DNA of 40,489 nucleotides, from IMG/VR virus record IMGVR_UViG_2713896773_000021. The stretch is one strand, 5' to 3'. This stretch comes from a virus. Its lineage: Duplodnaviria > Heunggongvirae > Uroviricota > Caudoviricetes. Each line of letters starts with the position of its first letter. Position 1 is the first letter of the stretch. Position numbers and translations under genes: made by a program. Below, one piece after another: positions 4,184 to 30,582 of the stretch. The notes below the pieces were generated by a model, which was not told the origin of the DNA, made no database searches, and was given only the letters and a program-made list of their open reading frames with translations.

Positions 4184-5586
4184 TGCCTCAGTACCTTCAT
4201 GGTTGTCGGCATAAACGCCGGATGCGGTACGCGCGCTTCCTGTACCAGTTCATCTGCACGGGTGGCATCCTGGTATAATCGGTTTGCCAGCGTCAGCGCC
4301 GGAAGCGGCTGAGCGGTAGTAACCTGCAGAAGCTCGCTCAGACCAGAAGCACGCTCACTCATCGTAGAAAGGAATGCCGATCTGACGGCGAGAAGCGCGT
4401 TATACATATCATCGTCCGCGCGGTCTCCAGCCAGAACCAGCGCCGTATCAAGTTGCACAGACACTCGTTGAGTTAACTCTTCTGCCTCGTCTGTACTGGC
4501 TGGTCTGGAGTCCGCAGCGGCACTGGTCATGGCACCAGTACATAGCACAACAATCAGCGTGTTCATGGTCGCCGAAATCGCTTTGCTGCTGTCGGACTGC
4601 TGGTACTCCGTGCTGATTGAATTAGCCAGTTTTTCCAGCGCTGTGATTCGGTCATTAACGCTGCCGGCGCTGTTAAGAATTGCGTTTACCACGTCGGCGA
4701 CGCCCTGGACAAACTCATCAGGTGTGTTGGAGCTGCTAAGCTGGCTCGACCTGTCGGTAACATTTTTCCGGTCCATTACCGACTGGGCTGTTACCTTGTC
4801 AGCCAGTGCTCTCTCATCATCCACATCAGCAACTGACGATTTGCCAGCAACAGCAGAGGAACTACCGCCCACAGAGCCTTTACTGTAACGTCCGTACCGG
4901 GTATTCCCGAACGTGGAGTTCAGGACATTGCTGAGATTCGTGACCTGACTGATGGTGCTGTCAACCATGTTAGTCCAGAACGTGACCGTGCCTCTGATGG
5001 TGTTTATAGCCTGTGTGACACCGCGGATTTCACTCTTAACCCTGGCAATCGTGCTCAGCACAGCAGTGCTGACCAGTTTCAGATAGTTGGTTTTCACCGT
5101 GGCGCCTGCAACGGTACTGCCCGTGACAGCAAACACTTTAAGCCCTGATTCAATTGCCATCAGGGTAAATTCAAATACTCGCCCGTTCTCCATCGAACCG
5201 GAAATACGCAAACCATTCTCAGGGATGGAAACCGTTAATTCGCCCAGTGTCGGATGGACAAGCGTACCGCTACCTTTTTGTTCACAGGCTTCAATCAGTG
5301 ACTGGCGCTGCGTGATAGCATCGCCGCCGCCGTAAACCTGGCTGTTCTGGATCAAGAAACCGCGAATAACAAATCGCCGTGTTGCCCGCCCGATATCCTC
5401 TATCCAGGCTGTATCACGGTAGGGATATTCATGTACCGCCTGGCGTCGGCCGTGGCTCCCTTCCTCAGCAACAATTGCAAATGGCACACCTCTGAATGAG
5501 CTGGGCCGTAACTGCCCCTGCCAGTCATCGCTGGTATCTCCCCCCAAAAGAGAAGTTATTGCGTCCTGGATAATTGACGGCATCAC
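4180..5586 (-). CDS. DNA circulation protein N-like (Mu gpN family)
   Basis: N-terminus ...WQGQLRPSSFRGVPFAIVAEEGSHGRRQAVHEYPYRDTAWIEDIGR... matches the Mu N 'DNA circulation' N-terminal signature; GGAGG RBS upstream; first ATG probably at 5583. Confidence 0.7.
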   Translation of the reverse strand: MMPSIIQDAITSLLGGDTSDDWQGQLRPSSFRGVPFAIVAEEGSHGRRQAVHEYPYRDTAWIEDIGRATRRFVIRGFLIQNSQVYGGGDAITQRQSLIEACEQKGSGTLVHPTLGELTVSIPENGLRISGSMENGRVFEFTLMAIESGLKVFAVTGSTVAGATVKTNYLKLVSTAVLSTIARVKSEIRGVTQAINTIRGTVTFWTNMVDSTISQVTNLSNVLNSTFGNTRYGRYSKGSVGGSSSAVAGKSSVADVDDERALADKVTAQSVMDRKNVTDRSSQLSSSNTPDEFVQGVADVVNAILNSAGSVNDRITALEKLANSISTEYQQSDSSKAISATMNTLIVVLCTGAMTSAAADSRPASTDEAEELTQRVSVQLDTALVLAGDRADDDMYNALLAVRSAFLSTMSERASGLSELLQVTTAQPLPALTLANRLYQDATRADELVQEARVPHPAFMPTTMKVLRQ

Positions 5587-18684: not shown

Positions 18685-19189
18685 TCAGCACCTCTGTCAT
18701 CCTGTCCGCCGGTACATCCAGATCAGCAGCCATTAGCGGCGCCACCCTGGACGGCCAGTTAAGCCAGGCATCACGCTGTTGGCGAAAGGCGTTGAATAAA
18801 ACCTCCTCGGCTGCTGTCAGCTCAATAAGCTGGCCGCTGTCTTTTTCATACTGCAGCTTTGCCTGCAGGGCCATGTAATTCTCGCGGATACGTCCCGCTT
18901 CCTCTCTCGAAAGATCTGCCCCTTCAGTGAGCATTATCTGGCGGACAGTTTTATTGATTTCATCACCGTCATCATCGTTATCGCTAACGACGGGAGTTTT
19001 CTTTTTCTTCGCGTTCGAGGCGCGCGGGTCTTTGCCATCGCGGTTTTTCTTCAATGCCGCATCGCTGGCCTCTACGTCAATCAGGTCTCCGTCCATCACA
19101 ATGAAGCGCCCGGCTTTAATCCACCGACCAATTGTTTTGCGATCCACACCTGAATGTTGTGCGTACTGACTCTGGTTCATCGTGGTCAT
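18620..19189 (-). CDS. Terminase small subunit (lambda Nu1-like, N-terminal HTH)
   Basis: N-terminus QSQYAQHSGVDRKTIGRWIKAGRF resembles Nu1 HTH (KKQLADIFGASIRTIQNWQEQG); directly preceded by an array of binding-site-like repeats. Confidence 0.6.
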   Translation of the reverse strand: MTTMNQSQYAQHSGVDRKTIGRWIKAGRFIVMDGDLIDVEASDAALKKNRDGKDPRASNAKKKKTPVVSDNDDDGDEINKTVRQIMLTEGADLSREEAGRIRENYMALQAKLQYEKDSGQLIELTAAEEVLFNAFRQQRDAWLNWPSRVAPLMAADLDVPADRMTEVLIEHVHKHISVLGEPEFNPAED

Positions 19190-19337
19190 GGGACATCACC
19201 TGGGACATTTTCTGGGGTGGGACATTCGCCTGGGACATTTTTGCCATGTCCCACCAGAATGTCCCACTGGAATAAACTGGAATAGCCAGAGCTGGCGAGG
19301 TGTCCGTAATGATCGCCAGAGGTGGGACATGGGACAC
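19189..19337. repeat. Array of 8-bp repeats TGGGACAT (5 direct copies and 2 inverted, plus one GGGACAC variant); candidate cosB-like terminase binding region
   Basis: Direct copies at 19189, 19201, 19218, 19231, 19323; inverted ATGTCCCA at 19246 and 19259; the inner four copies are arranged with dyad symmetry around ~19242. Confidence 0.5.
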
Positions 19338-19427
19338 AAATCTGAAAGTTGTAGCTAGGAAAACACCGCGGCGCGCAATGCCCGTGCCTTACAAAAGGCT
19401 CAGGAAGGACCCAAAACCCCTGGGGGG

Positions 19428-20069
19428 CTATCTGGCCGAGCTGATCGCCTCAGCAATCGCCTGGTGCAGCGCTGAGGGTAACAATGCGTTGACCATGGTG
19501 TTTGCCCTGTCCATATAGCCGAGCGTTGGTTTGACTGGAAGCGCGTCTCCAAACCGAATGAGCAATTTTGGTGCAGGTTGCTTAATCTTGTCTCTGCGCG
19601 TGCCGTTCGGAGAACGTTTTGCCCGTTTCTTCCCTTTTTTGATTTTCGGCTTTTTTCTCTGCCACACGGCATTCACGCCACCAACGTCACCAATAAATAC
19701 GTTTGGCTTTGCTTTGAGCTGAGAGAGCTTATTACGCGGCAGGTTGCCGTATTTATTAAGCTTTATGTCTTTCGGATTAAGCAAAGCACTACCATTAAGC
19801 TTGTGCTCTCCGCCGAACTCGAAGGGTTCAAGGTAGCCAGCAGCAGTATCACGAACAAACACCTTCGCACGAAGGCTGTTTTTCCTGGCACCAACTGACC
19901 CTACCGATTTAACTGTAAAAGGTGTTGGATTATCCAGATTCCGCTCAAATGCTGTTTTTTGGGCCGCTTCTATCTGGCGAACCACTTTAGTCATAGCCTG
20001 GGCAGTCGCAAACGGTATTTGCTTCTGCAGCTGTCTTAACTGACTGGAAAGGTCCTTAAGCGTTGCCAT
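19428..20069 (-). CDS. Hypothetical basic protein (Lys/Arg-rich C-terminal region)
   Basis: 213-aa ORF with AGGAGG RBS 8 nt upstream of ATG 20069; lies between a terminator and the cos-like repeats. Confidence 0.45.
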   Translation of the reverse strand: MATLKDLSSQLRQLQKQIPFATAQAMTKVVRQIEAAQKTAFERNLDNPTPFTVKSVGSVGARKNSLRAKVFVRDTAAGYLEPFEFGGEHKLNGSALLNPKDIKLNKYGNLPRNKLSQLKAKPNVFIGDVGGVNAVWQRKKPKIKKGKKRAKRSPNGTRRDKIKQPAPKLLIRFGDALPVKPTLGYMDRANTMVNALLPSALHQAIAEAISSAR

Positions 20070-20120
20070 ATCATTGACCTCCTAGTTACAGTAATTAAGA
20101 TCAGTTTGCTCATAAAGTTG

Positions 20121-20147
20121 ACAATAAAAAACCGCCCGTAGGCGGTT
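20121..20147 (-). terminator. Rho-independent terminator (stem ccgcc/ggcgg then U-run)
   Basis: Plus strand aaaaaaccgcccgtaggcggtt overlapping the stop of the 20146..20550 gene. Confidence 0.5.
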
Positions 20148-20550
20148 AGTCGAACATTTTATCAAGTTGCTTAGCAAGAGCTCGGTTAAACAGCTCCTTC
20201 GAAACTGTCATCAGCGTGCCCATACTGGCATCTTTGAATCCGGTTTTTAATGTTGCCCAAACCTCTTTGTTACGGAGAGCATCCAAGAAGTCATGCCCCA
20301 TCGCGGTCAATCGCAAGGGCATTACAGCCCAGTGAGTCATTCCGTCTAAAGACTGAATAGCACCAAAGCCGGGCTCCCCATCACTCCTGATAATCAGCCC
20401 TCTATCCTCAAGCAAACGCATATGAAACACAAATGTGTCAGTTTCACAATTGAACCCTAAATCATTTAATCGAATAATATCGGTATCAGGTGAATCCGAT
20501 GCCTCGAAAGCCTCGAGCAAACCTTTAAGGTATTCTTGATCTATTTGCAT
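20146..20550 (-). CDS. Hypothetical protein at the end of the lysis operon (possible moron)
   Basis: 134-aa ORF after Rz, followed by terminator; no family recognised. Confidence 0.45.
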   Translation of the reverse strand: MQIDQEYLKGLLEAFEASDSPDTDIIRLNDLGFNCETDTFVFHMRLLEDRGLIIRSDGEPGFGAIQSLDGMTHWAVMPLRLTAMGHDFLDALRNKEVWATLKTGFKDASMGTLMTVSKELFNRALAKQLDKMFD

Positions 20551-20582
20551 AACCCCTACGTATGTAAAAGGTTAATTTAACA

Positions 20583-21062
20583 TCAATTTAAGCACTGCTC
20601 TTTGATGTATTCCTGCAAATATCCAACCTGTTTCGTCACTGTGACGATTCGCTCTCTGAGGGTGAAATAATCCCGTTCAGCGGAGTCAGTAAGTCGGGGG
20701 CCGGTAACATCGCCCAGGCCGCCGGTGCTGGTCGCTCCGTTCGCGGGACATCTGGCGTTGACGTGCAGCCCACACTTGCCAGTGCGAACACAACGCTGCA
20801 AATCATCAAGCTGCTTTTTAGCATCAGCTAAGTCCTTCGTGTATTTGGCATCCAGCACCGCTGCATCACGCTGGCGGATCTGCATGTCTTTGATGGTGGC
20901 GTTCGCCTGGTTAAGATTCTTAATGGCTTTATCGCGCTGGTCTTTGTAGGTGATGGCGTTGCCGCGGTAGTGGTTAATAGCCCAAGCCATGGAAACCATC
21001 AGGCAGATAACGACAGCACAGATAATTGCTGTTAATCGGCTCACTAATCTAACCCCCAACAC
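20583..21062 (-). CDS. Rz: Rz-like i-spanin
   Basis: N-terminal TM ([20 protein letters not shown]) then coiled-coil-like periplasmic part; likely true start is GTG at 21044 overlapping endolysin stop. Confidence 0.6.
20636..20824 (-). CDS. Rz1: Rz1-like o-spanin lipoprotein embedded in the +1 frame of Rz
   Basis: [20 protein letters not shown] signal/lipobox-like; ...[26 protein letters not shown] closely resembles lambda Rz1 ([26 protein letters not shown]). Confidence 0.6.
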
Positions 21063-21580
21063 GCCAGCGCGCTTTCCTGGTCCCGTCTCTCAACCTGACC
21101 ATAGCAGCCATTCTTCTGGCCTTTGGTTAGTCGGCAATCGCGGCCACCGTCTTTGATCCACCAGCGGATTGCTTCACATGCCCCTTTACGATCACCGGCG
21201 TTGATGCGTTTATAAAAGGTAGAAGGGAAGCATTTACCAGGACCAATGTTGTACGGGCAGAATGAGGCAATCCCCGCTTTCTGCGGTTCGGTCAGTGGTA
21301 CCTGGATATTGCGGTCGACCCAAGCCAGCGCCTTGTTCAGCTCGCTGGCGTTCACCTGATTACATTTCTCTGGCGATAGCCTCATACCTGGGGTAACAGG
21401 CTTGCCGTCAACCGTGGTAGCTCCCCGGCAAATCGTCCAGATACCGCTGCCATCTTTGTACGCTGTAAGGCTGTTTCCCTCTTTCTCATTCAGAAACTGA
21501 TCGAGAATGACGGATGCTGGCGCACCAGCAAGTACCAACCCCAGAACAGCAGCACTTAATTTTGCTCTGGATCCCATCAC
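21044..21580 (-). CDS. SAR endolysin (phage lysozyme, P21 R-like)
   Basis: N-terminal hydrophobic signal-anchor ([19 protein letters not shown]); motifs EG..L.AYKD..G.WTICRG, Y..G.G.F.ST..KRIN.GD.KGAC, RR..E...CWG shared with P21-type lysozymes. Confidence 0.8.
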
Positions 21581-21879
21581 TCACCTTCCTTTTGTAATGC
21601 CTCAACGACCACGCTTGCAGCCGCAGGACGTTCGTGAAGGGGTTTATCACCAACGCCTTTCAGGTAGTCATTAACCATTTTTGTTCGCTTCTCGTCCTCT
21701 CTACGCCTGCGGTGGGCATCCACGCGACCATTGACATAGGAGGCAAACGAGATAAGCAGACCAGCGGCGCCAAAGAACATGAACACCATATCCTGAGTGG
21801 TAAAACCAATGGCTGACGCCAGAGCTGCTACCCACGCGAAGAACTGCGTGAAAATGTTCCCTGAATCATTCATTTTCAT
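21577..21879 (-). CDS. Holin (two hydrophobic segments; MKM dual-start motif)
   Basis: 100-aa ORF, GAGGTGA RBS; starts MKMNDSG... like lambda S dual start; ATGA-coupled to endolysin. Confidence 0.65.
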   Translation of the reverse strand: MKMNDSGNIFTQFFAWVAALASAIGFTTQDMVFMFFGAAGLLISFASYVNGRVDAHRRRREDEKRTKMVNDYLKGVGDKPLHERPAAASVVVEALQKEGE

Positions 21880-21914
21880 GGTCTCTCACCTCGCTGTGTG
21901 CGGGTGTTATTGAG

Positions 21915-21941
21915 GTAATAAAAAAGGCCGCTTGAGCGACC
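21915..21941 (-). terminator. Terminator-like hairpin (ggucgc/gcggcc with G-U pair, then U6AUU) between methyltransferase and holin
   Basis: Plus strand taataaaaaaggccgcttgagcgacc. Confidence 0.4.
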
Positions 21942-21947
21942 TCACGT

Positions 21948-23000
21948 TTATTCCCCTGTTAACGCCCTTATTTCCTCCACCGTCTGGCTAAACCTGTCCT
22001 CCTCGAGTTCAACGCCGATAGCCTGGCGGCCAAGTTCCAGCGCGATTTTCACGGTCGAACCGGACCCCATAAAGAAATCAGCCACCACATCACTAGGCTT
22101 ACTGCTGGCGTTGATGATCTGCCGCAACATGTCAGCGGGTTTTTCGCATGGGTGTTTACCTGGGTAAAACTGAACGGGTTTATGTGTCCAGACGTCGGTA
22201 TAAGGAACGGATACGGAAACAGAGAAATGCCGCCGAAGCGATTTGTACTCTTCGAGCAGCTCTGAATACTTGCGATTTAACGAATGCCACATAGCCACCA
22301 GCTGGTGGTGTGGTGTTGCCAGTTCGCCGTTCTGGTGCTTTTCGATGGCTACCTGCGTGAAAAGGGACTGAAGATTCCGGTAGTCTGATTCATTCGGTAA
22401 TTGCCACTGGCTACCGCTGAACCAGTGAGACACCATGTTCTTCTTTCCAGTCGCATCGGCTATTTGTTTTGAGGTTATGCCAAGCGCTTCACGTGCATCC
22501 CGGAAATAAGAAATTAGGGGAGTCATTACATGCTGCTTCAGCTCGCTTCCCTTCTCCGCGTAACCGTCGCTCTTTGGTTTATACGGCCCCTGGTAATGCT
22601 CAGCGAAGAGGATGCGCTCTGTTGCAGGGAAGTAAGAGCGCAGACTCTCTTTATTACAGCCATTCCAGCGGCCCGACGGTTTAGCCCAGATGATGTGGTT
22701 CAGGACGTTGAACCGCTCACGCATCATGATCTCAATGTCTGCCGCCAGGCGGTGACCGGAGAAAAGATAAAGACTGCCAGCAGGTTTAAGCACTCGCCAG
22801 AATTGTGCGAGGCACATATCAAGCCAGCGAAGATAATCCTCATCCCCTTTCCACTGATTGTCCCAGCCGTTGGGTTTCACTTTGAAGTACGGCGGATCCG
22901 TGACTATCAGGTCAATGGAGTTATCAGGGAGAGTGGCGATGTATTGCAGGCTATCAGCGTTGACTAACTCAACACTGTTTATATTTACAGTATTTTTCAT
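21948..23000 (-). CDS. DNA methyltransferase, beta-class (DPPY motif before FxGxG); N6-adenine or N4-cytosine specific
   Basis: ...IDLIVTDPPYFK... near N-terminus and ...DVVADFFMGSGSTVKIAL... near C-terminus. Confidence 0.75.
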   Translation of the reverse strand: MKNTVNINSVELVNADSLQYIATLPDNSIDLIVTDPPYFKVKPNGWDNQWKGDEDYLRWLDMCLAQFWRVLKPAGSLYLFSGHRLAADIEIMMRERFNVLNHIIWAKPSGRWNGCNKESLRSYFPATERILFAEHYQGPYKPKSDGYAEKGSELKQHVMTPLISYFRDAREALGITSKQIADATGKKNMVSHWFSGSQWQLPNESDYRNLQSLFTQVAIEKHQNGELATPHHQLVAMWHSLNRKYSELLEEYKSLRRHFSVSVSVPYTDVWTHKPVQFYPGKHPCEKPADMLRQIINASSKPSDVVADFFMGSGSTVKIALELGRQAIGVELEEDRFSQTVEEIRALTGE

Positions 23001-23167
23001 AGATCAATAAGCGTAACTCTGATAGGCTCTCTTTGCTTTTGCGCTAAAGCAATGGGCCTTGGTTAGCTTGTGACCTGAAAGCATGAGCTGATGGCTGGTG
23101 GGTGCTCCAACATCCACCAGCCGCCCATTTTCACAGCAAAATACCTCCGAAATGGAGGTGCGAAGGC

Positions 23168-23192
23168 ATAAAAAAACCCCGCTTAAGCGAGG
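23168..23192 (-). terminator. Terminator-like hairpin (ccucgc/gcgggg with G-U pair, then U7) downstream of HEPN gene
   Basis: Plus strand ataaaaaaaccccgcttaagcgagg, 18 nt after stop of 23210..23614. Confidence 0.4.
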
Positions 23193-23209
23193 TTATTTCG
23201 AATAGATAA

Positions 23210-23614
23210 TCAAGCAGCAGGTTCGGATGGATAAACCTGCTCATACATCTGCTGAAGGGTGTCAATAGCTTTGTTAGCCATTATCAATATAGCTTCCGCA
23301 TCAGCCTTACTTAAAGTTCTATCAAGCTCGTAATCTGCCCATTTACGTCGGGTATGCAAATGTCTCAGCATTGTTCCCATAGAAATGAGTTTCATTTTTT
23401 CAAACGGCTCATTTCCTTTTAACCATGCATCATTTGTAAGATAGTCGCGAACAGCTTGGTGTGACGACTTGTTTGGGCATTTCTCAAGCTTATCAAGCGT
23501 TTCATGATAAACTCCATAATACGCTCGACCAATGGCGTTTCTGTAACCGATTTCATCGTTGTGAGAAATGCATTTACCAGCAAAAACAATAAAATCTTTC
23601 CCCGATACGCTCAT
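23210..23614 (-). CDS. HEPN-domain protein (predicted RNase-type effector/toxin)
   Basis: 134 aa; ...NAIGRAYYGVYHETLDKL... and ...RRKWADYE... match the classic HEPN helix-1 (RAYYamfH) and R..ADY motifs; start ATG overlaps stop of upstream gene (TGATGA). Confidence 0.6.
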   Translation of the reverse strand: MSVSGKDFIVFAGKCISHNDEIGYRNAIGRAYYGVYHETLDKLEKCPNKSSHQAVRDYLTNDAWLKGNEPFEKMKLISMGTMLRHLHTRRKWADYELDRTLSKADAEAILIMANKAIDTLQQMYEQVYPSEPAA

Positions 23615-24369
23615 CAGTAAATCCCTCTTTTTTCATCGCTTTGAAACCAGGATGTAAAAGGGCTGTTCCGATAACTATCATCTGAGAGCAAAACCAACAG
23701 TTCCATGTTCATTTCAGCTAAAACCTGCGGATCAGCAGTTTGGGCTCTAACGATGAATGCATTGTCATCATCTCCACCAAGATAATAGCTAACACTTGAA
23801 CAGTTAATACCGCGCTTGTTCGCAATCTCTTCAGCTTGATCGCAAAGGGCTTCTAGTTCTCGAGAAGAAAGACGGGTAGCGTTTTTGAAATCAACAATCT
23901 GTTCAGCCATATAATTTCCCTGATTGATTATATCCTCTCGCTCTTGGCCATCATAAAGAGCAGCCATTTTGAGGGAGAACTTTTTAACCAACTTGTCGTT
24001 GCCGATACAAAATGCAGCGTTTCTTGCTACAAGCCTCAGTTCATGTGAAGGGAAAAGCTCAACTATTCTAAACAACTCAACGCGATGCTCATAGTTATGA
24101 GCCGAACGAGAAAGATACGCCAAGTAGTTTTGTGCGATCGTTGGACTCCCAGAGCTCATCGCGTCTTTGAATAAACGTACTGCATCAGAGTGACGCCCGA
24201 GAGTTCCATTAAGCCATGCATACGCATGTGCGCGCTCACTTATTGGAAGTTTAGCAATGTCGCGCTCAATTTCCGCAATAGTGTCTGTATCCGGGACTTC
24301 TCCCTTCTGGAAGTAATCGAGGATTGTTGCAAGCAGTTCTTGTTCTTTTGACTCAGGCTGTCCTGACAT
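23614..24369 (-). CDS. Uncharacterised helical protein, partner of HEPN protein
   Basis: First ATG at 24369 (MSGQPESKEQ...), ~251 aa; no catalytic motif recognised; 1-nt overlap with HEPN gene implies co-translation. Confidence 0.5.
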   Translation of the reverse strand: MSGQPESKEQELLATILDYFQKGEVPDTDTIAEIERDIAKLPISERAHAYAWLNGTLGRHSDAVRLFKDAMSSGSPTIAQNYLAYLSRSAHNYEHRVELFRIVELFPSHELRLVARNAAFCIGNDKLVKKFSLKMAALYDGQEREDIINQGNYMAEQIVDFKNATRLSSRELEALCDQAEEIANKRGINCSSVSYYLGGDDDNAFIVRAQTADPQVLAEMNMELLVLLSDDSYRNSPFTSWFQSDEKRGIY

Positions 24370-24520
24370 AATTTTCCCGAAGAAAACCAAATTCTGTATG
24401 TTTTCAATAGCTTCACTGGATAGGTTTTTATATTGCTGTCATCAGTATTGAAGCTTTTACGGGATTGTACAGGACCATCAGCGTTCTACTTGTGCATAAG
24501 AATTTAATAAACCTACAGAC

Positions 24521-24594
24521 TTATCCACAGAAAAAAGAGTTATCAACAAAAAAAGTTATTCACAACTTAACTAATAGCAAAATATTGTTGATAA
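24521..24594. promoter_or_regulatory. Cluster of DnaA-box-like 9-mers in AT-rich leader of the cargo operon
   Basis: TTATCCACA 24521-24529 (perfect consensus), TTATCAACA 24540-24548, TTATTCACA 24556-24564, inverted TGTTGATAA 24586-24594. Confidence 0.3.
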
Positions 24595-24716
24595 GCTGTG
24601 CGTAATTATCATATCCATCAAACTTACGCACATTAGAGCCTTGTGTTGCCTATCCATCGTTTTTTCCTATCAAAACGAAACGACATGCTTTTCTGCGATT
24701 AAAAAAGTATTCCGCA

Positions 24717-24746
24717 AAATTAAAAAACCCGCTCACTGGCGGGTTT
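24717..24746 (-). terminator. tR'-like rho-independent terminator just downstream of Q-like gene
   Basis: Minus-strand RNA aaacccgccagugagcggguuuuuuaauuuu (stem cccgc/gcggg). Confidence 0.55.
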
Positions 24747-24778
24747 ATATACTGTTGGCAACATATCAAATTAGCTTC

Positions 24779-24808
24779 AAATATCGCTTATTTTGTTGCA
24801 TTTTGCAA
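24779..24808 (-). promoter_or_regulatory. Candidate late promoter (PR'-like): -35 TTGCAA, 17-18 nt spacer, -10 GATATT/ATATTT
   Basis: Located between Q-like stop (24839) and the terminator; sigma70-like hexamers read on the minus strand. Confidence 0.25.
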
Positions 24809-24838
24809 GCCCAATTGAGGGAGTTAGTGAAAGTTATC

Positions 24839-25531
24839 TCACATTTCCGCCACTTTGAGTTCTTGGTACTCTTCGTACCGTGACAAAATTTCGCTTAGTG
24901 CCTGGCTGTCCATTTCTGCAAACGACGCTTTGAAAGCCGCCCAGTGGCCTGAATACACTCTGAGCCAGGTGGAACGCTCAACGCTGACCATGCGCGCCAG
25001 AGCTGCTCCAGCATACTCCTGATAGGTATCGTTATTACGCGAGGCAGCAACTTCTTGCGCCGCCAGCCAGACAAGCCCTATCAGTTTTTTAGTGACACGG
25101 CCCTGTATTTTTTTGCCGCTATGCTGACGCTGAAATTGTTCCCACACGTACTGGCACATTAACGTCTGGTACCGGAAGGTCAGGTCATACCCATAGCAAT
25201 ACCGCACCCATGCCTGCAAATGCTCCCCCAGACCATTCACCGACCGACGCCATGCTGAACAAGCGAACTCCGTATCCTTAATAGGCGGTAAAGGTCGGCG
25301 ACGGCTCCTTGTCTCAAGAACATAAAGCGGAGTGGCCAGAGTTTTTACAACCTTCGATCCACAACCTTCCCCACCTTCCATGACGATTTCAGGATGGTGC
25401 CGGGGGTATTTGTTCTTATCTGCTGGTGGATGCTCACTGAACGCCTGCAGCTGTCCTTTTGTCGAACCTGATAAATCCGCCAGCGCTCGGCGCAGTTCAA
25501 TCCGCGTATATTCCAGTTCTTGTAAATTCAT
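24839..25531 (-). CDS. Putative late-gene antiterminator (Q-like by position; family not recognised)
   Basis: First ATG at 25531 (MNLQELEYTRIELRR...); immediately upstream of a promoter/terminator pair and the late operon; no zinc-finger motif. Confidence 0.4.
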   Translation of the reverse strand: MNLQELEYTRIELRRALADLSGSTKGQLQAFSEHPPADKNKYPRHHPEIVMEGGEGCGSKVVKTLATPLYVLETRSRRRPLPPIKDTEFACSAWRRSVNGLGEHLQAWVRYCYGYDLTFRYQTLMCQYVWEQFQRQHSGKKIQGRVTKKLIGLVWLAAQEVAASRNNDTYQEYAGAALARMVSVERSTWLRVYSGHWAAFKASFAEMDSQALSEILSRYEEYQELKVAEM

Positions 25532-25552
25532 TATGCTCAGCGCTCCATACAA

Positions 25553-26614
25553 TTACGCTTTTGTTATTACGCCGATCGCCAGCGCTCGATTCATAAATCG
25601 GAATAGCAGCTCCAGCTGGGTACCGTGTTTTTTCTCGAACGCTGCAACATCAGCATGTAATTTGTCGTGACACTCTCTGCACAGAGGGATCACGAACAAA
25701 TCGTGGGCTTTAGTGGCGGTACCGCCCATGCCGTGACCAATGACATGGTGTGGATCATCCGCTGGCCGCCGGCAACCTTCACAGGGCTGGGTTTTAGCCC
25801 ACCGGGTATAGTCCTCATTCACCCACCTGCGGTGTTTTGGGCGCAACATGAATGATTCAGGGGATTCAGGATCCGCATGCAGAGCCAGAACCTGTGGCTG
25901 GTCATAGGCCACTTCCTGATTTGTTCCATGCTTTAAATGCGCAGCCGTGACCGCAGGGGTGACCTTCTTCTGCAAAATGTTTTTTGTCGGTGGCATCGGC
26001 ACAATGTCACTTTCGCGATATACGGATAAAAACGGCTCATCCGGTAAGCGAAGCGCATGCTGGGCCATCCTTTCCGTGATTGCATCAGCAATGCCTGAGT
26101 AAACGGCCCACCAGCACAATTCACCGAGGGATAGTTCACGCTCGTTGTTGTAGCCAAGCGAAGACAGGATAGAACTGATCAGCCAGTTAATGAGATTACG
26201 CCGGGCCAGTTCTGCCAGCGCCGCGGTGGTTTGCTCGCGCAGCTGGTTATCGCAATGCCAACAGAGCAACATTGATCCAGGGGGATGTCGCATCGTTACC
26301 AGCTCATGATGGTGATAATCAGTGTGCGGGTACTGGCATTCCTTCACGTTACGCTCTAGCCAGGATTCCAACCCGGACAAACCGCCTGCTGCACGGATAA
26401 CTCTCTCGTCGGTGAAGAATTCCTCGAGGGACTTATCTTCTGCCAGCGGCTGCCGGGCATCAGGGACGAGCCCCGACGGAAGCCCAGCCATGCTTTTTGG
26501 CTGAGGCTCCACCAGCACACGCCCCTGTTGAAACAAAGACATCAGTTCGCTACCCGGCTTTAACAGCACAAGCCCAAGGCGCGGAACAGTCTCGGCTGTA
26601 AACAGTCCTCTCAC
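25553..26614 (-). CDS. DUF968-like protein with C-terminal Cys/His cluster
   Basis: C-terminus ...CEGCRRPADDPHHVIGHGMGGTATKAHDLFVIPLCRECHDKLH...; GTG start overlapping upstream stop. Confidence 0.5.
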   Translation of the reverse strand: MRGLFTAETVPRLGLVLLKPGSELMSLFQQGRVLVEPQPKSMAGLPSGLVPDARQPLAEDKSLEEFFTDERVIRAAGGLSGLESWLERNVKECQYPHTDYHHHELVTMRHPPGSMLLCWHCDNQLREQTTAALAELARRNLINWLISSILSSLGYNNERELSLGELCWWAVYSGIADAITERMAQHALRLPDEPFLSVYRESDIVPMPPTKNILQKKVTPAVTAAHLKHGTNQEVAYDQPQVLALHADPESPESFMLRPKHRRWVNEDYTRWAKTQPCEGCRRPADDPHHVIGHGMGGTATKAHDLFVIPLCRECHDKLHADVAAFEKKHGTQLELLFRFMNRALAIGVITKA

Positions 26615-27303
26615 GCGGCATGCCCCTTAGCGATGTGTGCCGTCCACAGGCCGCCGATCCACTCGATGCCTTTGGGTGTAAAACGTGCCTGGCTAAAGGC
26701 GTAGTTTGTTTCGCTCGTAGTGCCAGTTTTCACTTCAAACCGCCCGGCAGCAATGTGCTGGTGCCGAGGTGTCAGCACTCCACTGAGCCGGTACAAAATG
26801 CCGCTCTCAATGAGGAACAAGCGGAAATCGGTCTCTTTGGCCTGCAACAGCTTTGCCACCTGGCGGAAAGACATTGAGCCTTTGGCAGTACAATATCGAT
26901 CGACAAACTCAACTTTCGGCGCGGCAGCGGCTAACTGCTGGCTGAGTTGTTCTTTCTGCTCGGCCAGATCCGCGGCGAGACGTAATGCCTCCGGCAATGT
27001 TTGCGGGACACTTACGGCCTGGCTGTTCTCCAGCTCTTGCCAGCGATCGACAACAGCGGCGGTAAATTCTGGCGACAGCCTGGCGACGATCACCAGAGAA
27101 TCACGTTTGTTAAACCAATACTCCTCGTAGGTTTGCCCGTTTTGCGGGTGTGTGTAGGGGGTGTGCGCCAACGGCGCGGTTAAAATACCAGCAGATGCAA
27201 GGCGCTCAGCTGAGCGCTTCACATCACCATGTTTGCTCTGCACCAGCCTGGCAATTTCACGGCTGGACATTGTCACAACACCCTTAGCGGTTAACTGATT
27301 CAT
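26611..27303 (-). CDS. Antirepressor (Rha-type N-terminal domain + KilA-C-like C-terminal domain)
   Basis: Start at ATG 27303 with GGAGAAA RBS; N-terminus MNQLTAKGVVTMSSREIARLVQSKHGDVKRSAERL is Rha-like. Confidence 0.65.
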   Translation of the reverse strand: MNQLTAKGVVTMSSREIARLVQSKHGDVKRSAERLASAGILTAPLAHTPYTHPQNGQTYEEYWFNKRDSLVIVARLSPEFTAAVVDRWQELENSQAVSVPQTLPEALRLAADLAEQKEQLSQQLAAAAPKVEFVDRYCTAKGSMSFRQVAKLLQAKETDFRLFLIESGILYRLSGVLTPRHQHIAAGRFEVKTGTTSETNYAFSQARFTPKGIEWIGGLWTAHIAKGHAA

Positions 27304-27317
27304 GCTATTTCTCCATA

Positions 27318-29255
27318 TCAGGCGGCTGCACCCGCCTTTTGATTTGCACATAATTCAGGAAGATTTGCTTCTACCAGCGCACGAGCGAACGGCGGCGGTA
27401 CTGCGTTACCACAGCGCGCTACCTGCTTGTCTTTGGCGTAACGATTGCCGCGATAGTCCTGATCGATAACGTAGCCGTCAGGGAAGCCCTGCGCCTTATA
27501 AAGCTCATGCGGTTGCAGCATGCGCATTCCGATATCGACGATCTGGTACTTAACCCCCTCGATCGTCACCAGCCATTCATCCTCGCTATCACCGCAGTAG
27601 GTTTCGAGGAATGTCCGGACCTCGCCAACGTGCTGGCCACCAGCGGTAATCGTCGGCATAGGTGTATCCATGGTCTGACCGTCGCGGCAGGTTCCGCGCA
27701 GCTTCACCAGGTGCGACGCAACTACCGCGTGGTGATCAACAGTAGTGACTGAGTGGGCAGGCTCATCCATACCAACACCCGGCCCCGTGTAATTCCCACC
27801 ATAGTGCTTCGCCAGGAACGCGCTCACCGTTGCAAACTTATTACCACCAGCAGTGACCGTGCCGAGCGGGTTATTCAGTTGAAGAACACGCGGTTCTTGC
27901 CCTGGGCGTTCGCCGTACCCCATCTGGATCAGTGTTGGAGTTACCAGCTGCGACTTACCGCCACCACCTGCAGTAATCGTCGCACTCGGTTCGTCAGCCC
28001 TGTGCCCAACACTGGCTCCAAACTGGCGGGCGATGACCGGCGCAACCACGCACGCGCGGGACTGCTTGAGGATTGTATGAGCGGGTTTATCCAGCGGGCG
28101 CGGCTTTGCCTGGTACTCACTGCCGCCATTGCCAGCCAGGAACGGTGTCAGGGCGGCCTCAACTACGCCAAGCGCATGCCCATTCCCGCCCGGGCGCGCC
28201 GACGTACCAGCGGTGACAGTTGGTACCGGCTCGGTCACTGGCTGCCCGGTGGCCCCGGTGCGGAATTTAGTAAGATGCGGTACCGCCAGTGCGTAGCCAT
28301 GCTTTTTAGTGATGGTCTGCAATGGCTCTAACAACGATTGCCCGCGGAAACAGTCATAACCTCCTTTCGTCGTGGTGTGGTTACACTTCACGATGAAAGG
28401 TGATGCGCTTTCGATAACAAAGCGCTGGATGCCGCGCGCGATACGTTTGAGCGTATTTTCCGCCAGCGGCTTTTTGCGGTCGAAGATGGACCGGGCCGGG
28501 ATATTCCAGTCAATGCACTCCGCCGCGGTACGCCATGGCGCCAGCTTGCCGCTTTGTACTTCCAGTGATTTTGGATCCCCATGAGTCGCTTCAGGCCAAT
28601 GAATCTTGCGGCCGTCACAGCGCATGACCATGAAGAAACGCTTTCTGATCGTCGGCGCGCCGTAGTCACATGCGCGCAGCTCCCGATAATCAACCTCATA
28701 ACCAAGCCCGGCGATCAGCTGTTGCGCCTGCTGGCCGTGCGGCTCAATGGCAAGGAATTCACAAACCTCAGCCAGCGCAGGGTGATTCGCCGCGATCCCC
28801 GTCGACAGCATGCCGACAAATGCCTCGAATGTTTCGCCAGCACGCTCAGGATCCGGGCGTAATTCTTCATCCAGCAGCGGGCCCCATGTCTTAAACTCTT
28901 CGACGTTCTCCAGCATCATGACGCGGGGACGTACTGCCAGCGCCCAGCGCAGGACAATCCACGCCAGCCCGCGAATCTCTTTCTTAACCGGCTTAGCGCC
29001 CTTCGCCTTGGAAAAGTGGCGGCAGTCAGGGCTAAACCAGGCCAGACCGACAGGTTTACCGCTGGTGGCTGCGCTTGGGTCAACGTCAAACACCGACTCG
29101 CAATAATGCAGCGTGTCAGGGTGATTCGTCTTATGCATCGCAATAGCGTTTTCGTCGTGGTTGATAGCGATATCCACGCTACGCCCGATCGCCAGTTCAA
29201 TGCCGGTACTCGCGCCGCCGCCACCAGCAAAGTTATCAACGATAATTTCACGCAT
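27318..29255 (-). CDS. DNA (cytosine-5)-methyltransferase-like protein with long C-terminal region of repeated modules
   Basis: Start at ATG 29255 (MREIIVDNFAGGGGAS...); FAGGGG (motif I-like), FSPDCRHFS (PC-motif variant), MLENVEEF (ENV motif); four P-x-T-[IV]-T-A-G-G modules in C-terminal half. Confidence 0.55.
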   Translation of the reverse strand: MREIIVDNFAGGGGASTGIELAIGRSVDIAINHDENAIAMHKTNHPDTLHYCESVFDVDPSAATSGKPVGLAWFSPDCRHFSKAKGAKPVKKEIRGLAWIVLRWALAVRPRVMMLENVEEFKTWGPLLDEELRPDPERAGETFEAFVGMLSTGIAANHPALAEVCEFLAIEPHGQQAQQLIAGLGYEVDYRELRACDYGAPTIRKRFFMVMRCDGRKIHWPEATHGDPKSLEVQSGKLAPWRTAAECIDWNIPARSIFDRKKPLAENTLKRIARGIQRFVIESASPFIVKCNHTTTKGGYDCFRGQSLLEPLQTITKKHGYALAVPHLTKFRTGATGQPVTEPVPTVTAGTSARPGGNGHALGVVEAALTPFLAGNGGSEYQAKPRPLDKPAHTILKQSRACVVAPVIARQFGASVGHRADEPSATITAGGGGKSQLVTPTLIQMGYGERPGQEPRVLQLNNPLGTVTAGGNKFATVSAFLAKHYGGNYTGPGVGMDEPAHSVTTVDHHAVVASHLVKLRGTCRDGQTMDTPMPTITAGGQHVGEVRTFLETYCGDSEDEWLVTIEGVKYQIVDIGMRMLQPHELYKAQGFPDGYVIDQDYRGNRYAKDKQVARCGNAVPPPFARALVEANLPELCANQKAGAAA

Positions 29256-30582
29256 TGACGGCCCCCTGCATGCTGTTGAAGAGACCACCAGCGGTCGTGA
29301 TAATTTCACTCGTCGGCATACGTTCGAGCCACAGCTGGTTGATATTGGCTTTCAGCTTGTTCTGCTGCGAAACAGGTAGAGCGTCAGCCCCTTCAATCTG
29401 GTTAAACACCAGTCCAACCTCAAGAGGCCAAACGCGCGATTCGTTTAACGCCTTGTCCTTTGATTCCTGCGTCTCACGGACATGGGCGCGGATCCCCCGA
29501 ATATTTGACCATTTGGCTTTATCCAGGCTTTCCATGGTCGCGATGAATTCACTGTGGTTAATGCCGTATTCTTTCGCAGACTCAACGGCAACCGTGCGTA
29601 ACCGCTCTGACATGTCTTGTTTCACGTCATCGCTATCAAAGGGCAATGTTTCCAGCCATGCATTAACACCCACCAGGATGCTCTCGCTGATCAGCTTTTT
29701 CGCTCTGTCGATCGTCAGCGGTGAAACATTGGTAAATTCAGGGTTTTCCAGAGAGTCGGCAGCCCAGGTATGACCAAACTTTGACTCGCTGAAGGTGTAC
29801 TCGTCTTTCTCGCCGAACGCCGCGACAACACAGGCCCAAGCCTCTACACCGCTGGTTTCCAGAATGGCTTTTTGGGTTAATGGCAGTTCTGCCTCTGATT
29901 TCTTCGGCACTACCTCAGCGTCCAGCTCTGGCGCCGCATCAGTTTGCGTTCTTCCCACGGCAAATTGGGCCAGCGACATCGCAGCACGGCCTTTGGCCTC
30001 CAGGTCGGTGCGGTTGATGTAACTGAAACGCTCACCCCGCCATGTTTTGTCGAAGACCACGATAGCGCCAGCAAAAAATGCGCTGGTGGGCTGCTGCTTT
30101 TCGTCTTTCGGCACGAACCATGTAGGAAGATCGAAACCAATTCGGCCACGGATGAATGTGACGTGATCTGCCTCTTCCGGCCACCACGTTTCACTCGTCG
30201 CAGACTTAATGAGAAAAACGTACCGACCACCCTTTTCTCGCATGGCCATAGCGTGGTTAATGATGTGGGTCATTCCGGTAACGGCCTGCTTGTCGTGGTA
30301 CTGAGAGCGGCTGTAAGGCGGGTTGCCAAACCCGGCACCACCGAGTTCTGCCAGCCGCTCTGACCAATCCTGCGTCAGGGCATTATCTTCAGCCGTGTAC
30401 CATGCTGGGCACTTCGCGTTGCTGTCGTCGGCAAAAAGGTCCAACACCAGAGGGCCGAACATCGCATTGATCCCCCAAAACAACAGATCCGGAGTGCGCC
30501 ATTGATCACCGACCTCTTTCAACTCGTGTGCTGGTTTTGAACGGAGTTCAGCCAGTGCACGGCAGTATTTATTTTCCATCAT
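29248..30582 (-). CDS. Phage Dam-like N6-adenine methyltransferase domain fused to ~260-aa uncharacterised C-terminal region
   Basis: QWRTPDLLFWGINAMFGPLVLDLFADDSNAKCPAWYT...GFGNPPYS (NPPY motif). Confidence 0.7.
   Translation of the reverse strand: MMENKYCRALAELRSKPAHELKEVGDQWRTPDLLFWGINAMFGPLVLDLFADDSNAKCPAWYTAEDNALTQDWSERLAELGGAGFGNPPYSRSQYHDKQAVTGMTHIINHAMAMREKGGRYVFLIKSATSETWWPEEADHVTFIRGRIGFDLPTWFVPKDEKQQPTSAFFAGAIVVFDKTWRGERFSYINRTDLEAKGRAAMSLAQFAVGRTQTDAAPELDAEVVPKKSEAELPLTQKAILETSGVEAWACVVAAFGEKDEYTFSESKFGHTWAADSLENPEFTNVSPLTIDRAKKLISESILVGVNAWLETLPFDSDDVKQDMSERLRTVAVESAKEYGINHSEFIATMESLDKAKWSNIRGIRAHVRETQESKDKALNESRVWPLEVGLVFNQIEGADALPVSQQNKLKANINQLWLERMPTSEIITTAGGLFNSMQGAVNA

Follow-up and report, generated by a model that had tools for sequence, protein, structure and literature searches.

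We describe here a mobile gene cassette in the late region of an Escherichia coli prophage (IMG/VR virus record IMGVR_UViG_2713896773_000021; the whole stretch analysed, 40,489 nucleotides, is called the window below). The cassette carries a gene pair, encoding a TPR-like protein of 251 amino acids (aa) and a HEPN-fold protein of 134 aa, and lies between the gene for the antiterminator Q and a DNA methyltransferase gene that precedes the lysis genes. Whereas a preliminary description, made from the letters alone, had marked an island of 2.7 kb, comparison with related prophages identifies the mobile unit as a cassette of about 1.5 kb at 23180–24716, which consists of a 347-nucleotide (nt) AT-rich leader, the gene for the TPR-like protein, the coupled HEPN gene and a terminator of its own. 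The cassette is a phage moron; its architecture is a known one and the promoter of this copy is putative. We favour, with moderate confidence, a reading in which the pair benefits the lysogen and is served by a promoter in its own leader and by its own terminator, within a slot behind Q, the late promoter PR' and the terminator tR'.

Borders and mobility of the cassette

A prophage of E. coli ECONIH4 matches the region with 100% identity, and the window is a lambdoid prophage of the LLS-like, Chi-rich class; phage LLS itself is one of the relatives compared (L008). All genes of the region are on the minus strand, as are the terminators and promoters given below unless the plus strand is named. 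Homology with six relatives that share the same Q gene (phages Eeyore, Flotzy and LLS and three E. coli prophages) breaks at 23148–23179 and resumes at 24716–24723. The flanks are identical, but no two of these six relatives agree in what lies between them: one has an SDH-type protease together with a small gene, four have one gene each, of 63, 181 or 192 aa or, in reverse orientation, of 159 aa, and Flotzy has only 51 bp. The inserts have a GC content of 35–47%, against about 51% for their flanks; the cassette in the window has 40.7% (42.8% for the coding sequence of the pair), against 50.5–52.4%. As judged from these alignments, the slot between tR' and the methyltransferase leader is recombination-prone and holds interchangeable low-GC cassettes. 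The preliminary description had taken the pair and the methyltransferase together as horizontally acquired cargo, and had proposed comparison with relatives and GC profiling. Both comparisons uphold this view for the pair with its own terminator, the borders of which are not shared by the relatives, and speak against it for the methyltransferase, which is found in all close relatives, has the GC content of the phage backbone and follows a leader without a promoter.

The same cassette was found in 12 of 5,426 complete E. coli genomes, each copy at least 99.7% identical, and in none of the sequenced phage records. It is joined to three different Q modules: in the E. coli prophages L006 and L007 an identical pair, methyltransferase and set of lysis genes stand behind Q modules that differ from that of the window, with a tRNA gene (tRNA-Thr) at the slot position in L006. 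In another relative, L021, the TPR–HEPN cassette and the 63-aa cassette lie in tandem with a terminator between them. Beyond E. coli, the pair occupies the same slot in Enterobacter hormaechei and lies between Q and holin in Morganella, where the methyltransferase is missing. Further copies stand behind Q genes of the PF03589 type, next to an acyltransferase gene where a Mu-like prophage ends, and in an island beside umuDC and a resolvase gene; distant members lie between the tail chaperone and tape measure genes. In every context examined the homologue of the 251-aa protein is followed by that of the 134-aa protein, in most cases with the stop codon of the first overlapping the start codon of the second, and an intrinsic terminator follows the HEPN gene. 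The pair represents a small two-gene family that is conserved and moves from one classic moron site to another, and the slot is a well-bounded example of the swapping of lambdoid accessory cassettes behind a late terminator, with terminators at the joints. We found no description of this slot, of this pair or of DnaA boxes on prophage cargo in the literature searched.

A terminator scan located minus-strand hairpins with T-runs at 24746–24725, 23194–23175 and 21943–21924, in agreement with the three terminators placed earlier at 24717–24746, 23168–23192 and 21915–21941. Each hairpin has 8 pairs, 5 of them G–C. They are referred to here as terminator 1 (24715–24746, folding energy −12.0 kcal/mol), the cassette-borne terminator 2 (23165–23194, −13.1 kcal/mol, z-score −3.4) and terminator 3, before the holin gene (21914–21943, −11.9 kcal/mol, z-score −2.8). 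A fourth minus-strand terminator (20147–20130, −12.8 kcal/mol) follows the DUF2513 gene. The z-scores of the set range from −2.2 to −3.6, so that nearly all shuffled sequences fold less stably. Terminator-like sites in the region number 23, compared with 12.6 ± 3.2 in shuffled sequences. The hairpins had also been called similar, which holds for terminators 2 and 3: read by eye, they are identical at about 22 of 30 positions, and the differences in their stems are compensatory (CC..GG versus GG..CC). Terminator 2 is nearly unchanged in L021 and L022. It also differs little from the allele of the post-Q terminator in L004 and L009, and the tail TTTTTTTATGCC is found again after tR' where the site is empty; these matches suggest that cassettes are exchanged at terminators.

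That the terminators bracket inserted genes, as had been proposed, holds for terminator 2 but probably not for the terminator after Q, which is conserved with the Q family and is therefore most likely part of the Q module rather than a border of the cargo. Q (24839–25552, 237 aa, 51.7% GC) matches PF06323 (E 5e-41) and phrog_304, the anti-termination protein Q-like group, in keeping with its earlier identification as Q-like. It is 34% identical to the Q protein of phage 434, and its family also includes the Q proteins of Gifsy-1 and N15; the Q of LLS has been named type 5 (PMC12315714). A sequence search of solved structures gave no match for Q, and the geometry of the Q-binding site can therefore not be transferred from lambda, 21 or 82.

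Downstream of the Q gene lies a candidate promoter, TTGCAA-N17-GATATT (24780–24808, 8 of 12 consensus positions), followed by an invariant TAATTTGATAT and then by the hairpin of terminator 1. This block, with (G/C)ATATT as its −10 element, is kept in 11 of 11 loci with this Q family, Morganella included, and also in L007, where it overlaps the stop codon at the end of the Q gene. Pairing in the hairpin is retained across relatives while the sequences of stem and loop vary, and homology with relatives that carry other cargo ends just past its T-run. The arrangement has two of the features of lambda-type late control, namely a Q-family gene directly upstream and, after it, a promoter with a close intrinsic terminator that are conserved with the type of Q. 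By analogy with late control in lambda, the block is most likely PR' followed by tR' (terminator 1), giving a transcript of about 55 nt; the TAATTTGATAT that lies between the two without variation is no more than a candidate for a Q-binding element or a σ-dependent pause site.

The gene pair and its leader

The first gene of the pair (23614–24369, phrog_17809) can be read as an open reading frame (ORF) of 258 aa beginning with TTG (window 24369–24390). Its homologues and the RefSeq annotation begin at the ATG at 24369, giving 251 aa, and this is most likely the true start. The start codon of the HEPN gene (23210–23614, phrog_5176) overlaps the stop codon of its partner (ATGA), and the two genes are translationally coupled.

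The 134-aa protein of the window gave no match in Pfam by itself. Eight of the 24 members of its family match PF05168 (best E 1.5e-5), and the family profile matches the solved HEPN proteins 9xbd and 9xbc (E 3e-5). A structural model of the protein (pLDDT 93.7) has the HEPN protein 2hsb as its top Foldseek match (probability 1.0), and also matches 2q00, 1ufb and the HEPN domain of sacsin, all with weak E-values of 0.06 or above. The model and the family profile identify it as a HEPN-fold protein of the PF05168/UPF0332-like type with a four-helix fold; the HEPN label of the preliminary description thus stands for family and fold, though not as a Pfam match of the protein itself. Residues R25, N26, R30, H37, R90, D94 and Y95 are invariant in the family, and a check for the R-x4-6-H motif shows R30-x6-H37, together with R90-x3-D94-Y95, to be invariant, both being candidates for an active RNase site.

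Fold comparison shows the 251-aa partner to be a TPR-like helical array with a small C-terminal alpha/beta domain that resembles the N-domain of RimP. Its family comprises about 68 representatives, nearly all of equal length, and has no counterpart in Pfam, NCBIfam or PADLOC; in PADLOC nothing convincing was found for the protein itself or for ten distant relatives. A fold search of a viral library returned only two uncharacterised phage proteins, both of the same architecture. We considered whether the partner might be a nucleotidyltransferase, as in HEPN-MNT systems. This was rejected on the basis of its fold, with no nucleotidyltransferase among the matches listed, and the pair is therefore not a HEPN-MNT system. 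The HEPN protein is more conserved than its TPR-like partner, a contrast that is only suggestive, and that would fit an effector paired with a fast-evolving regulator.

The cassette leader (24370–24716) has 33.7% GC, against about 51% for its flanks, in line with the earlier estimate of about 33%. When it is aligned with the leaders of L009 and L021, conserved islands alternate with diverged spacers, a pattern that marks it as a regulatory region. One block that is invariant in the three contains a candidate −10 element, TACAAT (24464–24469). In three cassettes elsewhere (L013, L018 and L023) the motif GTGACA-N16-TGnTA(C/G)AAT stands about 80–100 nt before the start codon and is by its sequence a near-consensus extended −10 promoter; the TACAAT of the window corresponds in position to the −10 element of GTGACA-N16-TGgTACAAT in L013 and L018. 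Because orthologous cassettes have consensus promoters and their −10 element is retained here, Q-independent expression of the pair in the lysogen is plausible. An alternative reading of the promoter is TGTACA-16-AATACT (24471–24444). On the plus strand, two weak promoter-like sites (TTCACA-16-AATATT and TTCACA-18-TATTGT, both 9 of 12) at 24559–24588 share sequence with a DnaA box; they face Q and might produce an antisense transcript.

The leader also contains a cluster of five 9-mers resembling DnaA boxes, at 24491–24499, 24521–24529 (a perfect TTATCCACA), 24540–24548, 24556–24564 and 24586–24594, and thus spanning 24491–24594. Three of the four matches to TTWTNCACA in the window fall inside the cluster, as do, within 104 bp, five of the 16 sites with at most one mismatch, a density that none of 300 block shuffles reached. 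The clustering of boxes with the consensus TTATNCACA is therefore beyond chance, and it is conserved in L009, L021 and L022. In L009 and L021 the boxes are at the same positions while the spacers between them have diverged. The L022 protein is only 55% identical and its Q belongs to a different family, yet its leader has three perfect boxes, one of which overlaps the −35 position of a TGgTAGAAA element. L009 has a close pair, TGTGGATAA-CTC-TGTGGATTT, at which the second site of the window matches in only 5 of 9 positions. The boxes are not a property of the slot, since other cassettes there are without them, and they are absent from copies of the pair outside late operons. A search of the literature gave nothing relevant on DnaA boxes in the promoters of prophage defence or toxin–antitoxin genes. 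The cluster is the one unexpected feature here and provides a testable link, undescribed in the literature searched, between a host replication factor and prophage cargo. Apart from the leader, three 9-mers within one mismatch of the DnaA box occur in 170 bp at 2486–2655, far from the cargo.

Expression of the pair and alternative explanations

The favoured reading would work as follows. In the lysogen, polymerase that starts at PR' would stop at tR', and the pair would be transcribed from a weak or factor-dependent promoter in the leader, with TACAAT as the −10 element and DnaA boxes in place of a −35 element. This transcription would end at terminator 2, which together with a conserved hairpin in the methyltransferase leader and terminator 3 would keep it out of the holin and lysozyme genes; a cassette may carry a terminator of its own because a cassette promoter reading into these genes would harm the lysogen. 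After induction, Q-modified polymerase would read through all three terminators, and a single late operon would comprise the pair, the methyltransferase, which has no promoter, and the genes for lysis and structure. The pair is most likely a module of the toxin/sensor type, which would aid the lysogen through anti-phage defence or addiction, with the HEPN protein as effector and the TPR-like protein as regulator, and as such it is a reasonable candidate for either role. In this reading the anatomy, the terminators, the folds of the two proteins and the fact that the cassette moves are established by the analysis, while promoter activity, a role of DnaA and what the pair does are inferred.

Several observations weigh against this reading. 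The coding strand of the leader has no consensus σ70 promoter, the best site matching 8 of 12 positions and none reaching at least 9 of 12; the conserved TACAAT is without a −35 element, and what lies 21 nt upstream of it, at the −35 position, is a DnaA box. The gaps between boxes are 7–21 bp (starts 16–30 bp apart), and not the 2–3 bp of the pairs that are preferred for DnaA binding in vivo (PMC11317965). The Morganella copies have a leader of only 150 nt in which TACAAT is replaced by TACCCT, so that read-through may be what expresses the pair in some lineages. The identities of PR' and tR' derive from conservation only, and RNase catalysis by a HEPN family of the UPF0332-like type is only putative. 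Among known defence systems in PADLOC-DB v2 none was matched by the pair, the only similarity being a weak one of the HEPN protein to PDC-M05B (E 0.012).

Some of these observations would be expected if the pair were simply a set of Q-dependent late genes that lacked their own promoter, were not expressed in the lysogen and acted in the lytic cycle, perhaps against rival phages or the defences of the host, while the terminators merely insulated the late operon from stray transcription. The pair shares the orientation of the late operon in which it lies, Q-modified polymerase must transcribe it, most of its copies lie directly behind a Q gene, and both the leader without a consensus promoter and the short Morganella leader with its degraded −10 element are in keeping with such a role. 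We nevertheless consider it unlikely, while granting it some weight, since in L013, L018 and L025 the pair belongs to no late operon and has consensus promoters and terminators, since the leader has conservation islands of a regulatory style and a cluster of DnaA boxes, and since a terminator carried by the cassette would be pointless for genes expressed purely by read-through. The boxes themselves admit a different explanation, in which the leader is not a promoter at all but a DnaA-binding element (a site for titration or reactivation of DnaA, as datA and DARS are, a transcription roadblock, or what is left of a plasmid or phage origin) with which the pair merely travels. Five box-like sites in 104 bp of AT-rich DNA, arranged roughly symmetrically and conserved over long divergence, would suit such an element. 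Against it, the boxes are confined to the DNA upstream of this pair, and there to copies in the late-operon setting, one of them is placed exactly at the −35 position of the conserved −10 element in both the window and L022, there is no replication initiator gene and there are no iterons, and the spacing is unlike that of the 2–3 bp pairs; we regard this explanation as quite improbable.

Least probable, in our judgement, is that the whole of 21915–24746, pair and methyltransferase together, is one acquired island of separate units expressed in the lysogen. A terminator after each block of genes would agree with this, as would the dispensability of the methyltransferase over wider distances, seen in its absence from the Morganella relatives. 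However, no E. coli or Enterobacter relative lacks the methyltransferase or its leader, whichever cargo it carries, the gene has backbone GC and no promoter, and gene and leader match mEp460-like phages and E. coli genomes without the cassette, which itself occurs in 12 genomes. Terminators alone do not define independent transcription units, and the methyltransferase, which is bracketed by terminators and yet looks like an ordinary late gene, is instructive for annotation in this respect. A more speculative form of the favoured reading, in which the pair is an uncharacterised defence or addiction module whose promoter has been rebuilt in late operons for control by DnaA instead of a −35 element, seems to us distinctly doubtful; DnaA can activate or repress (PMC8203912). 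If it were true, a prophage toxin system would be expressed in step with the replication state of the cell or an infecting phage.

Morons are defined by a differing GC content and by a promoter and terminator of their own (Cumby, Davidson and Maxwell, 2012; PMC3594210). Like HK97 gene 15 and the lom and bor genes of lambda, the cassette is an extra segment between two genes of an operon that is absent from close relatives, it has a lower GC content than its neighbours and its own terminator, and homologous cassettes have consensus promoters; one distant copy of the pair occupies the same site as HK97 gene 15, between tail chaperone and tape measure genes. It differs from these morons in that no consensus promoter is recognisable, DnaA boxes taking the place of the −35 element, and in that expression from the repressed prophage is putative. 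In position the cassette resembles stx of Shiga-toxin phages (PMC8065619), which is cargo between Q/PR'/tR' and the lysis genes: in both cases the cargo comes right after a late promoter and terminator and before holin, and would thus be co-transcribed with the late genes after induction. Here, however, the cargo is a TPR–HEPN pair and no animal-host toxin, and a methyltransferase gene separates it from holin. The pair shares with HEPN-MNT (HepT–MntA) modules, and with the minimal HEPN proteins of UPF0332/PF05168, a small all-helical HEPN protein, a tight two-gene operon and residence in mobile DNA. In contrast to those, its partner, of 251 aa, combines a TPR-like part with a RimP-like alpha/beta domain, the partner gene comes first and RNase activity is putative.

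Hotspots for defence genes have been described in P2 and P4 (PMC9122126) and, upstream of the packaging genes, for phi80 Tai (PMC11364771). The slot in the window is likewise a fixed position between conserved phage genes that accepts many alternative small systems, including protease- and HEPN-type ones, although a defence role of its cassettes is only putative. As for DnaA-regulated promoters such as those of dnaA and nrdAB (PMC8203912, PMC11317965), consensus boxes are likewise found at and upstream of the candidate promoter core. The present case differs from these in concerning prophage cargo, with five boxes whose starts are 16–30 bp apart rather than pairs separated by 2–3 bp, and with binding that is only predicted.

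Methyltransferase, lysis genes and other features of the window

The methyltransferase gene (21948–23000) encodes an orphan beta-class enzyme (N6_N4_Mtase) with an inserted helix–turn–helix (HTH). The match to PF01555 (E 4e-42), the PADLOC MTase_II assignment (E 1.7e-145) and the DPPY motif visible in the translation bear out its identification in the preliminary description. There is no restriction endonuclease gene beside it, the neighbours being the HEPN pair and holin with no nuclease ORF, and it is classed as an orphan for this reason. Each of the six same-Q relatives has the gene together with its 165-nt leader and terminator 3, and the gene occurs in all close relatives and in mEp460-like phages. 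It has 50.5% GC, compared with 52.4% for the lysis genes, and no promoter-like site of at least 8 of 12 positions was found in 23001–23164 or before holin. The methyltransferase is part of the phage backbone and most likely an ordinary Q-dependent late gene, as judged from these comparisons. The lysis genes also lack a promoter of their own and can be reached only from upstream, through terminators 1 to 3 and the conserved terminator-like hairpin; Q-modified polymerase must therefore also transcribe the cargo in lytic growth. Terminator 3 (GGTCGC..GCGGCCTTTTTTATTNCC, 21914–21943) is nearly the same in Morganella prophages without the methyltransferase (L019, about 5540–5570), and it is therefore part of the lysis module and not of the methyltransferase.

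The methyltransferase leader (23001–23164), which bears GAAATGGGCGGCTGG, is present in all relatives, L022 included, and is at least as conserved as the gene. It contains a terminator-like hairpin (23159–23143, −9.4 kcal/mol) and a long hairpin (23128–23090, −27 kcal/mol) whose arms are two inverted Chi sites, at 23094–23101 (plus strand) and 23114–23121 (minus strand), next to the slot border. No Rfam family matched this leader, and we rejected a leader peptide or a tRNA remnant as its basis: the length of a short ORF (MGGWW...) is not conserved, and ARAGORN found nothing. A specific association of the inverted Chi pair with the slot border was likewise unsupported, Chi sites (GCTGGTGG) being spread across the whole prophage: the window has 23 (18 on the minus strand), where 1.6 would be expected. 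These 23 sites agree with the Chi richness described for LLS-like phages (PMC12315714).

Genes were identified from Pfam, phrog and translation-based assignments. In order of transcription, an Ant-like antirepressor gene (26611–27351) and a DUF968 gene (25553–26614) precede Q, the TPR-like and HEPN genes and the methyltransferase gene, and these are followed by the lysis cassette (20583–21879; holin, lysozyme and Rz with embedded Rz1), a DUF2513 gene (20146–20550) and the gene for the small terminase subunit. The window has a GC content of 51.4% and contains no tRNA or tmRNA gene according to ARAGORN. Rfam searches over 19000–26000 gave only sub-threshold chance matches, such as Trp_leader (E 0.048) on the PR'–tR' block. 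Two genes upstream of Q, a 663-aa gene (27318–29309) is the counterpart of a C5 cytosine methyltransferase gene (PF00145, 645–660 aa) found at that position in L009–L012 and L021. Since a Dam-type methylase is also encoded in L009–L011, there are two or three DNA methyltransferases per prophage.

A second cargo slot follows Rz (20120–20550). In the window it holds the DUF2513 gene, which has a low GC content (44%) and its own terminator (20147–20130), while relatives have a serine–threonine kinase, an SDH protease, an S1 peptidase or YfbU there. The position of this second slot fits the hotspot 'upstream of the packaging module' described for phi80 Tai.

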